DNA of 64,000 nt from Escherichia phage vB_EcoM_112. The position numbers and the translations under genes are program-made. The notes beneath the pieces were generated by a model that was not told the DNA's origin, did no database searches, and saw only the letters and a list, made by a program, of their open reading frames with translations. Shown here one piece after another: positions 856 through 5,683 of the stretch (position 1 is the first letter of the stretch; each line of letters opens with the position of its first letter). The stretch lies in sequence record NC_024125.2; one strand, given 5' to 3'.

Positions 856-1824
<969 letters not shown>

Positions 1825-1843
<19 letters not shown>

Positions 1844-2313
1844 TCAGTGATAAAGTTATTTAAATTTTGAGCGTATTTCTTTTCATCAAAAATCTTTTGC
1901 TGTCTGCGTAAACGCCATGGCATTTCAATGAACACGCACCATATTCCTGATAATATTGCTGCTGTAAAAATATTAACAAGTATGGTTAAAAGAATCCAAT
2001 CTCCTATTCTGTCCATTGGATTTTTTATAAAAAAGTAAAATACGAATGATGTCACAGGAAGACTAATAATATACCACAGAATCATAATTTTATCTGTGAA
2101 CCAATCAGCGTTCGTTAACTTAGCGCGACCATTATGAATACACACGAATTTATCATCTGTTATAATAGATGGCTTAGCTGCTTGATATCCCATTCTAAAC
2201 TCCCTAATCAACAAATTTTTCATATCTTCGGAACAACCATTCCAGTCAACTCTATCAACTGAAATGCCATCATCCCCATCATCTAAATCATACCAGCGAG
2301 TTTTTAAAATCAT
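1825..2313 (-). CDS. hypothetical membrane protein (two predicted TM helices)
   Basis: 162 aa ORF; hydrophobic segments ILWYIISLPVTSFVFYFF and ILLTILVNIFTAAILSGIWCVF; ATGA start/stop overlap with upstream ORF. Confidence 0.6.
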
Positions 2314-2672
2314 TTAATTTTCCTACAATCACTCACAAACTCTTCCATTGATTCTTTTTCAATATAAGACATGTAGCTATTATATTCCTTTAATTGTATT
2401 TTGTAATCCTTTTTTCTTTGCCAATTTATTTTAAAATTATCATAATGAAAATATAACATGGTACCAAAGAATGAAAATAATGAAATCGCTATAGTATAAC
2501 GAAGTTCACTCCAAACCTCTGTTATAATTACTGTGCCGTCAATGTTTAAAATAAAACAGTCAATTAACAATCCAATAAGACTACCCGCAAGAGCTGCAAA
2601 TACTGATACAGCAAGAATTAATAGTGACTCAGGAAACGAATATTTGACTTTATTTAATTTTGGCTTTTGCAT
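2310..2672 (-). CDS. hypothetical membrane protein
   Basis: 120 aa ORF; hydrophobic segments LLILAVSVFAALAGSLIGLLIDCFIL and IAISLFSFFGTMLYF. Confidence 0.6.
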   Translation of the reverse strand: MQKPKLNKVKYSFPESLLILAVSVFAALAGSLIGLLIDCFILNIDGTVIITEVWSELRYTIAISLFSFFGTMLYFHYDNFKINWQRKKDYKIQLKEYNSYMSYIEKESMEEFVSDCRKIK

Positions 2673-3067
2673 CGTGATTCCTTAACAAATTTCATAATTT
2701 CATTAAATTCATACATATCTAGTTTAAGCTGGTGTTCCTTTTTAATCTTTTTACACTGAGCTTTCCAATCGCGTACACGTTTACGATAATGCCTTCCTTG
2801 ATACCAGTATCCTACCCAATTTACGGGTACTAATAAAAGTGGAACTATTAATGGAAGAATTAGCATTAACACAAGTATTTCGCCAGAATCAATATCAGTC
2901 ATAACATCTAAAACACCTCCAATAATCAATAGAATTACAAATGATATGAGTATAACAGGACCTATTAACACATCAGTAGAAATTATCTGACGCTTTAATT
3001 CATACTTCAACGGTTTACTTGGAAGGTATAGTGATGGTTTTGACATATTCTCTACATTCCTTAACAA
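2654..3067 (-). CDS. hypothetical membrane protein
   Basis: 137 aa ORF with non-ATG first codon; likelier start at ATG 3046 (MSKPSLYL); hydrophobic segments VLIGPVILISFVILLIIGGVL and ILVLMLILPLIVPLLLVPV. Confidence 0.55.
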   Translation of the reverse strand: MLRNVENMSKPSLYLPSKPLKYELKRQIISTDVLIGPVILISFVILLIIGGVLDVMTDIDSGEILVLMLILPLIVPLLLVPVNWVGYWYQGRHYRKRVRDWKAQCKKIKKEHQLKLDMYEFNEIMKFVKESRCKSQN

Positions 3068-3623
3068 ATTTTTCTAGTAATAAATCACTTTCAAAATTGG
3101 GATTTTCTACAAATTTATCAAAAAGATCATCAACAATAGTTAAGATATTCTTTTTACTAAGAATACGTTTATTTTCATGCTTCGTTTCAGAATCAACTAT
3201 AAGAGTAAAGAAATATTTCTTGCCCTGAAATTTTACAGTAGTATCAATATAAAATAAATTTGACTTTTGTAAATTACGTTTAAACCATGCGTCACTTAAA
3301 CTATAAACACCGAGATAATCAAAATCGTCGTTTAAATAACAAACTGTCCATTCAGGAGAAATGAAATCAGTAAATTCAACATCAAAATCACATGTTAATG
3401 AATAAATTGATTCAATACTGTTAATAAGTATTCCAGGACGTATTAAAGACTTTTTACCTCTAGAAAATCTTCCAGAAAGACTTTCATCAGTTTCATATGA
3501 AGAACCCCAATAATAATTACGTCCTTCTGCCATACGTTTAAGAGCATTTAGTAATTGGTCTGGAACATCAACCTGTCTTTGAAACTCTTCAAACATTGAA
3601 TTGAAATCACTTTGCATTTTCAT
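3015..3623 (-). CDS. hypothetical protein
   Basis: 202 aa ORF, same strand and operon context as neighbours. Confidence 0.6.
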   Translation of the reverse strand: MKMQSDFNSMFEEFQRQVDVPDQLLNALKRMAEGRNYYWGSSYETDESLSGRFSRGKKSLIRPGILINSIESIYSLTCDFDVEFTDFISPEWTVCYLNDDFDYLGVYSLSDAWFKRNLQKSNLFYIDTTVKFQGKKYFFTLIVDSETKHENKRILSKKNILTIVDDLFDKFVENPNFESDLLLEKFVKECREYVKTITIPSK

Positions 3624-3643
3624 TCCTATTTACTCCAAGTAAT

Positions 3644-3660
3644 AGGGGCCGAAGCCCCTT
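3644..3660 (-). repeat. GC hairpin GGGGC-CGAA-GCCCC, copy 1 of 3
   Basis: aggggccgaagcccctt; identical core at 44661..44677 and 63436..63453, all intercistronic on the minus strand. Confidence 0.7.
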
Positions 3661-3664
3661 ATCA

Positions 3665-4258
3665 TTATTTCAGAGAATTAATATATTCCTGAACATCGGC
3701 AGAGGTAGTTTCAACCCCAGAAATATTACCATTAAAGGTTTCAACTCGAGCAAGAGTATCTTCAATATCAACCTTAGTCAGCGCTGCAATTTCAACTACA
3801 TCATCGGCAGTACTAATTCCAAGGGCATTCGCTGCACGAGTTTCACGGATATATTCCAATTTAACTGCAAGTTCTTGGCGAGCATCATCCAATTCAACTA
3901 CTTTCTTAGCGATTTCAATTCGCATTTCAGCATAACCATCAGCTTTAGTAGTCAACTGCTCAGCTGTTCGACGATATAGTAAACCGAGTTTAGCATGCAT
4001 TGTTACATCTTGACCTTCGGAAAGAAGCTTGCGAATTTCACGCTCTTTTGATTCAGCCTGCTTATTCTTTTCGACAATAAGTTCACGAATACGCTTTTCT
4101 TCATTAATAGATTTAACGGAAGCAGTTTTTAGATCTTTAATCTTATCAAGTAGTTTTGCTGCTGCAGCAGTATACTGTTCTTCAACAGATAGATTTTTAG
4201 CCATAGCAGAACCAAGTTTAGTGCGAATAAACTCAACAATTTTCTTCAGTGTGTTCAT
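3665..4258 (-). CDS. hypothetical coiled-coil protein
   Basis: 197 aa, highly charged heptad-like sequence ([41 protein letters not shown]...); PspA/IM30-like architecture is a guess. Confidence 0.6.
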
Positions 4259-4314
4259 AGTATTTCCTTAGGTTGATACAATTAGATAATATCACGTTTT
4301 AATAGATTGTAAAC

Positions 4315-4650
4315 TTATTCTTCGTCTAGCTCGTCGATAAAGACGTTGATGGCCTCGATAACGGCATCATTGATAGCTAATAAAATAAAATCATCGTCAG
4401 TACCTTTAGAAGATTCTAAAGCATTGATATATGCTTGGTTGGCGAGTTCCCAAGCCTTTTTAAAATAAGGAGCTTCATCATCAGGACAAATATCCCGCAC
4501 GCCTTCAAAGATACGTTTGGCATAATCTAACACCCATTGTACAGGCATGTTTTGAGAGCGTTCGTTAAACTCTTTAAATTCCTTAGATTCAAAAAGCTCT
4601 TCAGGATAATAATTTCGATTACAAAAAGCTTTACTAAAGTTACGTTTCAT
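4315..4650 (-). CDS. hypothetical protein
   Basis: 111 aa ORF, acidic C-terminus. Confidence 0.55.
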   Translation of the reverse strand: MKRNFSKAFCNRNYYPEELFESKEFKEFNERSQNMPVQWVLDYAKRIFEGVRDICPDDEAPYFKKAWELANQAYINALESSKGTDDDFILLAINDAVIEAINVFIDELDEE

Positions 4651-4705
4651 AATGTTCTCCTCAAATTATAGGCTCATAATATCTCAATCATGAGCCTATG
4701 TAAAC

Positions 4706-5209: not shown

Positions 5210-5683
5210 TTATTTGATTTGTTTAGCAGACCAAATGCGATCTTTAATAATTTTTTGGATGTCTTCAACATACTCAAGAGAGTGAGCATGTGGGTTATCT
5301 TTGAAACTATAAGCACGAGCTAACTTTTGACCTTCAGTTTTGATTACTAAAAGCTCTTTAAGGATAGCTTCATATTTGGAGATAATTCCTTTAACAATAT
5401 TTTTTTCTTGTGTAGCTTTAGGATCTGCTTTAGGAGCAGGTTTACCTGAAGCCTTTGCAAAAGCAGCGCCAGTAGCAACTAAACTTTTCCAGGCCATACT
5501 AACAGCATTCCCCGTAAATCCTTCTGCTTTCATGTCGCGAGCAAATTGGAATCGCGATTCGTCAGAAGCATCTTTATAAGAATATTTACCCGCTGCAATG
5601 GCTGCTTTTGCGACAGCTTGAATTTCGGTGCTAGATGCTTCATTTAACACCGCTTCATTTAAAAATTGAGTATATGATTTCAT
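5210..5683 (-). CDS. CTS-bearing internal-protein-like protein (157 aa)
   Basis: ATG at 5683 preceded by AGGAAATAAG; N-terminus MKSYTQFLNEA resembles the capsid targeting sequence; the 231-aa track ORF 5210..5905 runs across promoter and terminator and is rejected. Confidence 0.7.
   Translation of the reverse strand: MKSYTQFLNEAVLNEASSTEIQAVAKAAIAAGKYSYKDASDESRFQFARDMKAEGFTGNAVSMAWKSLVATGAAFAKASGKPAPKADPKATQEKNIVKGIISKYEAILKELLVIKTEGQKLARAYSFKDNPHAHSLEYVEDIQKIIKDRIWSAKQIK

Follow-up and report, generated by a model that had tools for sequence, protein, structure and literature searches.

A predicted PspA homologue and neighbouring proteins with a common C-terminal tail in the e.2-e.6 block of T4-like phages

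Five consecutive open reading frames (ORFs) occupy positions 4258-1825 on the minus strand of a 64,000-nucleotide (nt) stretch of Escherichia phage vB_EcoM_112 (NC_024125.2), hereafter the window, and correspond to the T4 genes e.6, e.5, e.4, e.3 and e.2. Profile and structure comparisons point to a PspA-like protein encoded by the first of these genes, and the genes that follow it specify proteins with a common C-terminal peptide. The five ORFs have the lengths given in a first-pass annotation that had been made from the sequence alone:

3665-4258, minus strand: e.6, 197 amino acids (aa); ORF, T4 synteny
3015-3623, minus strand: e.5, 202 aa; ORF, T4 synteny
2654-3046, minus strand: e.4, 130 aa; ORF, T4 annotation
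2310-2672, minus strand: e.3, 120 aa; ORF, T4 synteny
1825-2313, minus strand: e.2, 162 aa; ORF, T4 synteny

The window is a segment of a T4-like phage (Tequatrovirus). Positions 1300-4700 were 94.6% identical in nucleotide sequence to positions 66947-70354 of T4 (NC_000866) over 3.4 kb, and other T4-like phages were up to 97.8% identical to the same part of the window. Gene order (e to e.8 and the tRNA region) and gene sizes were the same as in T4, with the exception of e.2, which is intact here. Because identity, gene order and gene sizes match T4, the block was assigned to T4 e.2-e.6, and the synteny comparison with T4 e.2-e.8 proposed in the first-pass annotation agreed in both order and sizes. 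On the coding strand the order is e.6-e.5-e.4-e.3-e.2, which places the block 5′ (upstream) of nudE and not downstream of it as had been stated; e.7 and e.8 come beyond e.6 in the listed minus-strand gene order. The T4 annotation describes e.2, e.3, e.4, e.5 and e.6 as hypothetical. An old T4 GenBank record (L13089) names e.2-e.6 as msp7 to msp3 (msp3 being e.6) and marks early promoters before e.8, e.7 and e.6, together with a stem-loop after e.6. For e.4, the TTG start in the ORF list (3067) differs from the annotated start, and the ATG at 3046 gives 130 aa as in T4 e.4.

The products of e.5, e.3 and e.2 end in similar peptides, as had been noticed at first pass: FVKECREY.. in e.5, FVSDCRKIK in e.3 and FITECRKLK in e.2, with a variant in e.4, FVKESRCKSQN, that has Ser for Cys. 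The signature of the block is (L/I)-(E/N)-x-F-(I/V)-x-x-C-R at the ends of e.5, e.3 and e.2. A strict form of this motif, defined as [FW][IVL]xxCR near the C-terminus, was counted in a T4-type genome made up of T4 1-67,000, the window and T4 128,000-168,903. It was found in 3 of 414 ORFs (e.2, e.3 and e.5 only), compared with a mean of 0.2 after residue shuffling, and this genome-wide ORF count and the shuffles rule out a chance occurrence of the motif.

The same terminal peptide was present in proteins encoded 3′ of e.6 in all eight other genera examined (Dhakavirus, Marfavirus, Jiaodavirus, Tegunavirus, Biquartavirus, Roskildevirus, Pseudotevenvirus and Karamvirus). The strict motif was carried by 21 proteins, 1-22 residues from the C-terminus, with the consensus (L/I/F/V)-(E/N)-x-F-I-x-(Y/E)-C-R. 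Among these 21 proteins from nine genera, the Arg codon was AGA in 7, CGT in 5, AGG in 4, CGA in 3 and CGC in 2; Cys was encoded by TGC (12) or TGT (9), and Phe by TTT in 13 and TTC in 7. Moreover, in the other genera the Shine-Dalgarno (SD) sequence for the following gene lies outside the motif, and the motif is also encoded at the end of genes that no downstream gene overlaps. The earlier view that the peptide similarity is an SD sequence read through codons was therefore abandoned: since Arg uses five codons and the motif occurs without gene overlap, the codon evidence argues that the tail is selected at the protein level and is not an SD by-product.

The position of the motif relative to e.6 was highly consistent. 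In eight GenBank loci it was found in 0 of 73 same-strand ORFs upstream of e.6 and in 18 of 88 downstream, and in 40 IMG/VR viral contigs or loci collected with an e.6 profile the corresponding counts were 0 of 322 and 86 of 401. The first ORF after e.6 carried the strict motif in 36 of the 40 IMG/VR loci; two of the remaining four had F-x-N-Y-C-I and two were apparently truncated. This first gene encodes 93 to ~300 aa and is barely alignable between genera, being connected through a series of faint yet significant similarities (E 6e-6 between T4 e.5 and Marfa, E 4e-17 between Marfa and KP1). Because the first ORF carries the motif even as its size and sequence vary, the conserved core of the block is the pair of e.6 followed by a protein with the motif tail. 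In most genera, proteins with two transmembrane (TM) spans and the same tail, or the relaxed form F-[IVL]-K-E-[SVI]-R-K, come next. With L at -3, F at 0, I at +1 and C at +4, these residues fall on one helix face, and the tails are predicted to end as a cytoplasmic amphipathic helix.

In other genera the e.6-nudE stretch (L005 5522-6561, L006 5567-6616 and 6942-7139, L008 5553-6576, L013 5303-5829) also encodes a second family of soluble proteins, which are 65-100 aa long and present in 2-5 copies per phage. Its members end W-[VFYLQ]-[ST]-S-S-x-x-C or W-x-[PT]-S-S-C, and most of them have a terminal Cys. None of the family sequences displayed had the strict F-I-x-x-C-R tail, and the family is absent from the window block.

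The gene e.6 is the conserved anchor gene of the block, and its all-helical 197-aa product is present in 1098 phage records. The AlphaFold2 (AF2) model (predicted local distance difference test score, pLDDT, 74) contains helices at residues 2-22, 25-80, 86-145, 154-160, 165-175 and 186-196, an architecture that fits the PspA family with its N-terminal helix, long hairpin (25-80, 86-145) and short C-terminal helices. In a Foldseek search with e.6 the top eight PDB matches were all Vipp1/PspA, followed by archaeal CdvB2. When a profile of 34 diverse family members was compared with 177,635 PDB sequences, Vipp1/PspA was again at the top (E 1.2e-4 to 3e-3) and the alignment was collinear, 1-146 to 1-147. 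The diverse profile also matched E. coli PspA over residues 1-58 in hhalign (E 2.9e-4), while the hhalign match of a shallow e.6 profile to E. coli PspA was insignificant and phmmer with e.6 gave no match among PDB sequences. Two distant members, P0068 and P0066, were found full-length by the e.6 profile (E ~1e-20) and scored 39.0 and 35.1 bits on PF04012, for which the gathering score is 33.9; one distant member is also assigned PF04012 in the precomputed Pfam matches of its metagenomic contig. For e.6 and 29 closer relatives no PF04012 match was obtained even at E up to 10, only coiled-coil noise. A HMMER search of 1.84 billion proteins with the e.6 profile returned a closed family of 45 clusters at 50% identity, nearly all ~200 aa, with canonical PspA absent from the matches. 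The last 50 residues of e.6 are peculiar to this family. The hydrophobic moment of residues 2-19 was 0.45, compared with 0.42 for PspA.

Taken together, the profile matches and the model indicate that e.6 is a divergent homologue of PspA/IM30/Vipp1, within the ESCRT-III superfamily. In bacteria, the ESCRT-III-like proteins PspA, IM30 and Vipp1 attach to inner membranes under stress and stabilise them, and by analogy e.6 may bind membranes and form polymers. The first-pass annotation had counted this protein, as a coiled coil, in a membrane-directed set, and the predicted relationship to the membrane-binding PspA/Vipp1 proteins agrees with that assignment. For the Klebsiella phage Metamorpho homologue of e.6, a 2021 genome announcement reported an HHpred match to E. 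coli PspA (4WHE_A) with a probability of 99.9% (PMC7862958). The literature searched for PspA in combination with T4 or its relatives yielded no further report and no work on the function of e.6, and the PspA link of e.6 was absent from the database annotations encountered.

Several deposited T4-like genomes (hits H10, H28, H36, H48 and others) name e.6 'host specificity protein', and the same genomes name two genes in the e.2-e.5 stretch 'sulfurtransferase'; neither name was supported by any result of this analysis. On metagenomic contig L017 (4001-5383), a distant e.6 relative scores directly as PspA_IM30. It is followed on its 3′ side by a 186-aa protein with an N-terminal TM span and then by a 60-aa TM protein whose end, ...SIIKHARSRTRQ, is a Cys-less echo of the F-I-K-H-C-R tail.

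The product of e.5 is a soluble alpha/beta protein that ends in the F-V-K-E-C-R helix. Its AF2 model is of low confidence (pLDDT 58) and places the C-terminal helix at residues 181-196. Family alignments showed few invariant residues: N98, C190 and R191 were invariant throughout, P21 in one of two alignments, and F186 in one and nearly so in the other. The best-conserved positions of the e.5 family include those of the motif. Comparison of e.5 with PDB sequences gave a single insignificant match (E 0.046).

Kyte-Doolittle hydropathy gave two hydrophobic spans each in e.2, e.3 and e.4, as expected at first pass, and none in e.5 or e.6. The description of these three products as mostly transmembrane was correct for the spans and too broad for the remainder: the predicted cytoplasmic tails are 32-52 residues long (52 and basic in e.4), and e.2 begins with a 75-residue acidic N-terminal domain that precedes its two TM spans and tail. 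The N-termini and C-terminal tails of the three proteins are basic and the inter-helix loops acidic, and for this reason the tails are placed in the cytoplasm; e.2, e.3 and e.4 are thus predicted to be two-pass inner-membrane proteins in an N-in/C-in orientation.

To relate these proteins to one another, 104 unique TM-containing ORFs from downstream of e.6 were clustered and the family alignments compared. The e.3 family matched the e.4 family in hhalign with a probability of 94.5% (E 7.5e-8, 109 columns), and both are linked to two further families from other genera (94.8%). On the basis of these links e.3 and e.4 are tandem paralogues in a wider superfamily of proteins with two TM spans and a tail. 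The link of e.2 was weak (33%, E 4.6e-4) and covered the TM-plus-tail part. Two-TM genes 3′ of e.6 were also present in six of the eight other genera, and in the window e.4, e.3 and e.2 are encoded at most 2 kb downstream of e.6. PHROGs lists these membrane proteins as of unknown function.

The genes from e.5 to nudE overlap at four junctions:

3015-3046, minus strand: e.5/e.4 overlap, 32 nt, embedded SD
2654-2672, minus strand: e.4/e.3 overlap, 19 nt, embedded SD
2310-2313, minus strand: e.3/e.2 overlap, ATGA (4 nt), embedded SD
1825-1828, minus strand: e.2/nudE overlap, ATGA (4 nt), nudE start 1828
3051-3068, minus strand: e.5 motif codons FVKECR, overlapping the 13-mer TTTGTTAAGGAAT, SD source for e.4
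2672-2689, minus strand: e.4 variant motif codons FVKESR; the 13-mer TTTGTTAAGGAAT is the SD for e.3
2310-2339, minus strand: e.3 motif FVSDCR (2322-2339) and 18-nt repeat TGTAGGAAAATTAAATGA (2310-2327), with the SD and ATGA start of e.2
1825-1854, minus strand: e.2 motif FITECR (1837-1854) and second 18-nt repeat TGCAGGAAATTAAAATGA (1825-1842), with the SD and ATGA start of nudE

Each overlapping junction has an SD sequence, AAGGAA or AGGAAA, 5-10 nt ahead of the ATG, and these SDs are built from motif codons, either K-E (AAG GAA) or R-K (AGG AAA). The 18-mer TGYAGGAAAWTWAAATGA occurs in exactly two exact copies in the window, both in the block (e.3/e.2 and e.2/nudE); with up to two mismatches there are four matches in the window against 0.14 expected. 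The first-pass annotation had described the same signal at every junction, which proved exact at two of the four. The e.5/e.4 and e.4/e.3 junctions instead have a different exact 13-mer in common, TTTGTTAAGGAAT, with the SD in the K-E codons, so that the SD is placed in different peptide codons. For the 18-mer, an origin by chance was rejected on these counts. For nudE, the start at 1828, with AGGAAA 7 nt upstream, is more plausible than the annotated T4 start, an ATG 15 nt further up (1843) that has no SD.

Four junctions, but not e.6/e.5, thus combine an overlap of stop and start with an SD that lies in the upstream gene, and the arrangement suggests that the genes from e.5 to nudE are translationally coupled. 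The claim that all five genes are packed by overlaps accordingly applies to the four junctions (32, 19, 4 and 4 nt) and not to e.6, which is separated from e.5 by a 41-nt spacer containing a hairpin and has its own promoter:

4286-4313, minus strand: early-type promoter before e.6 (TTTACA, 16-nt spacer, TG, TATTAT), from a promoter scan
3644-3659, minus strand: GGGGCUUCGGCCCC hairpin (UUCG tetraloop; CUUCGG) in the e.6/e.5 spacer, from sequence, fold and L13089

L13089 annotates -35 and -10 signals at the equivalent position before msp3 and labels the hairpin a putative stem-loop. The GGGGCUUCGGCCCC hairpin has a folding energy of -15.1 kcal/mol (z -1.9) and no T-run on the coding strand, and is probably a leaky terminator or an RNA-stabilising hairpin. 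Candidate internal promoters in e.5 and e.3 were weak sigma-70-like matches and were rejected, the scan yielding about as many in shuffled sequence. With three predicted two-pass proteins and four junctions combining overlap and SD, the earlier description of a membrane-directed and probably co-translated set is upheld. More generally, the observations of the first-pass annotation were confirmed in part, and its interpretation is partly supported.

Two observations were made on the initiation regions. Those of e.5 (cttGGAGtaaataggaATG, 3624-3640) and e.7 (tttgaGGAGaacattATG, 4651-4665) contain GGAG, the motif at which the T4 endoribonuclease RegB cuts, and that of e.6 has AAGGAA. In addition, e.5 has a second in-frame ATG 6 nt downstream (3617) with better AGGA spacing, and this is the start annotated in L13089.

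In T4-infected E. coli all five genes belong to the early RNA class and all five proteins have been detected, e.4 and e.5 as early, e.2 and e.6 as middle and e.3 as late proteins (PMC9697503). Conservation within Tequatrovirus is uneven: relative to the window, identity is 80-90% for most copies of e.3 and e.4 and at least 95% for most copies of e.5 and e.6. By tblastn, e.2 was found in 530 records and e.4 and e.5 in 642. The T4 reference e.2 has a 1-nt deletion in an A-run (AAAAA, compared with AAAAAA here; T4 reference locus ~3700-3760, window equivalent ~2020-2030) that cuts the protein to 102 aa. An intact 162-aa e.2 is present in the window and in RB51, and PHROGs holds separate families for the two e.2 fragments (phrog_35263 and phrog_35580).

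Phage T2 lacks e.2 exactly (T2 locus 2505-2575); e.2 is a dispensable cassette. The T2 e.3/nudE junction is a hybrid, in which the e.3-specific ...GAGTTTGTGAGTGAT is followed by TGCAGGAAATTAAAATGAAAAC of the e.2/nudE form, indicating that the crossover that removed e.2 (or the site at which e.2 was inserted) lies within the 18-nt repeat. Reading frame, tail motif, SD and ATGA overlap all survive this event; since all of these are kept, the gene end has three roles, as peptide, ribosome-binding site and in-frame recombination site. The T2 record mis-annotates nudE as a 972-nt coding sequence overlapping gene e.

The genes next to the block are the following:

1388-1828, minus strand: nudE (e.1), Nudix hydrolase, last gene of the putatively coupled series
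856-1350, minus strand: e (lysozyme), T4 synteny

Elsewhere in the window, two 157-aa ORFs (288-761 and 5210-5683) begin MKTYQEFITEA and MKSYTQFLNEA. They stand in place of T4 ipII/ipIII and lie at the site of rnaC and rnaD in T4, and the ORF at 288-761 is like the T2 and RB51 Ip4 gene in size and position. Presumably both encode internal head proteins with a capsid-targeting leader.

Several known systems resemble the block in part. Compared with E. coli PspA (PF04012), e.6 is collinear from residue 1 to ~146, with an amphipathic-type N-terminal helix and long hairpin and a weaker match over the '..a.aRfEsF' region; it differs in being 197 aa rather than 222. As pspB and pspC adjoin pspA, genes for small inner-membrane proteins adjoin e.6. 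However, the block has no PspF-type regulator and is expressed from a phage early promoter, its two-TM partners have no sequence relationship with PspB/PspC, and no F-I-x-x-C-R tail was seen in PspB, PspC or PspD of E. coli. In B. subtilis LiaI-LiaH, a small two-TM anchor recruits an adjacently encoded PspA homologue to the membrane. The phage block likewise has a PspA-family gene beside genes for small two-TM membrane proteins, but, comparing by description, it has three membrane proteins and one soluble protein with a common tail, and its gene order is reversed, the PspA-like gene being first. In comparison with Vipp1/IM30 and ESCRT-III (Snf7, CdvB), polymerisation and membrane remodelling by e.6 are putative, and e.6 has a family-specific C-terminal stretch of 50 residues. 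T4 Imm, Sp and RIIA/RIIB are also early phage proteins acting at the envelope, RIIA and RIIB being annotated 'membrane integrity protector', but no sequence or domain relation between them and the block was found, their genes lie elsewhere in the genome and the tail motif is absent from them. Finally, Arbiol, Comeau and Krisch reportedly described promoter-stem-loop cassettes, in which T4-type genes are shuffled through short conserved boundary sequences. The block is similar in having short identical boundary sequences at a precise whole-gene gain or loss (T2 e.2), but here the boundary is coding (conserved peptide codons, SD and ATGA) and not intergenic.

These observations would fit a model, to which we give a probability of roughly 0.4, in which the phage encodes, in this block, a Psp-like module for membrane maintenance, and the partners in it use the tail peptide for docking. 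Elsewhere, proteins of the PspA family rely on small partners in the membrane, namely PspB/PspC in E. coli and LiaI in Bacillus. In the phage, translational coupling would provide the products from e.5 to nudE in fixed proportion, and the tail helix would act as a common docking or assembly element that joins the membrane proteins and e.5 mutually, to an e.6 polymer on the cytoplasmic side of the inner membrane, or both. From such docking it would follow that the membrane proteins serve as anchor or sensor for e.6, as PspB/PspC or LiaI do for PspA or LiaH, and the module would keep inner-membrane integrity and proton-motive force during infection. The setting may be the loss of the corresponding host function: T4 shuts off host transcription, so that the host sigma-54-dependent Psp response should not be inducible. 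The identical junction sequences would act as recombination sites through which whole cassettes are added or removed in frame, as with the loss of e.2 in T2.

A number of points weigh against this model. The product of e.6 itself falls below all Pfam thresholds, and the amphipathicity of its N-terminal helix is marginal, with 6.4% of shuffles reaching the observed value. BLASTP of e.2-e.5 against PspB, PspC and PspD showed no similarity (best E 0.11 for e.4 and PspB, at least 2.3 for e.2, e.3 and e.5), and e.2-e.5 matched no Pfam family, including the PspC domain, and no NCBIfam or PADLOC family. The proposed link between e.6 and the motif is drawn from gene order and co-occurrence. Since e.6 has its own promoter and hairpin, it is apparently not translationally coupled to the rest. 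In addition, the T4 reference has a frameshifted e.2, and T2 has none. The first-pass annotation had named dispensability on every tested host as evidence against a module, and for one laboratory host this is what was seen: when T4 genes were knocked down with dCas13d (CRISPRi-ART), e.2-e.8 and nudE were all scored 'Not Fit' (PMC11879866). The lysozyme gene e was likewise 'Not Fit' (PMC11879866), indicating that the sensitivity of this screen is limited.

Alternatively, the genes may be independent accessory genes in the hyper-variable e.6-nudE stretch, in which e.6 would work on its own as a PspA-like protein and the tail, unconnected with e.6, would be general-purpose (for example self-association, stability or host-factor binding). 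The content of this stretch does differ greatly across genera, with unrelated soluble families interleaved, e.6 is a separate unit of transcription and translation, and the motif also occurs on ~100-aa soluble proteins several genes from e.6. Set against this, the gene right after e.6 retains the motif in 36 of 40 loci despite encoding anything from 93 to ~300 aa of barely recognisable sequence, and the motif is absent elsewhere in the T4-type genome. On balance we regard independence as somewhat unlikely.

A bolder form of the membrane-maintenance model was also considered. Here the FIxxCR tail would be a docking tag that plugs changing membrane and soluble adaptors into a viral PspA/ESCRT-III-like polymer, giving a modular membrane-repair machine that replaces the shut-off host Psp system and could neutralise pore-forming or depolarising abortive-infection effectors, with adaptors swapped in frame through the gene-end sequence. 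We hold this version to be doubtful.

It is unlikelier again that the block is primarily an anti-defence module, in which a PspA-like polymer and its adaptors repair or block the pores or depolarisation caused by membrane-targeting abortive-infection effectors while fast-evolving membrane proteins track the effectors of the host. The faster divergence of e.3 and e.4 (80-90%) relative to e.5 and e.6 (mostly at least 95%) within Tequatrovirus would be expected from such a role, as would early expression, dispensability in a laboratory strain and cassette gain and loss, and there is a eukaryotic precedent in the repair of gasdermin pores by ESCRT-III. However, relaxed constraint would also speed the divergence of TM segments, no similarity to a described anti-defence protein was found, and PADLOC, which covers defence proteins only, gave nothing.

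That the gene ends are merely an SD and ATGA signal read as peptide, with the membrane proteins serving superinfection exclusion or lysis timing as suggested at first pass, is highly improbable: the four window junctions do make their SD from motif codons (AAG GAA or AGG AAA), both the 18-mer and the 13-mer occur as exact duplicates, and Imm and Sp are likewise small early membrane proteins by T4 annotation, but the motif is kept with CGN Arg codons, with the SD elsewhere, on soluble proteins and where genes do not overlap, the predicted side of the tails is cytoplasmic and not periplasmic, and searches of Pfam, PHROGs, NCBIfam and PADLOC gave no match to the Imm, Sp, holin, antiholin or spanin families.

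The five genes were already known as T4 ORFs, and the PspA homology of e.6 is in print. Within the scope of these searches, the new elements are the family defined by the tail motif, its nearly obligate association with e.6, the paralogy of e.3 and e.4, the predicted cytoplasmic tails, the triple use of the junction sequence and the cassette junctions. T4 is the best-studied lytic phage, and five of its orphan genes, annotated as hypothetical, now receive a testable hypothesis. It raises the question of how, with host gene expression destroyed by the phage, the inner membrane stays energised during infection and lysis inhibition, and may have a further bearing on resistance to membrane-attacking host defences. 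The six-residue motif with its invariant Cys-Arg offers a directly mutable handle, and the gene end presents one short sequence doubling as peptide, ribosome-binding site and recombination site. While not a surprise of principle, the finding provides a cheap experimental route into how a phage handles the membrane of its host.

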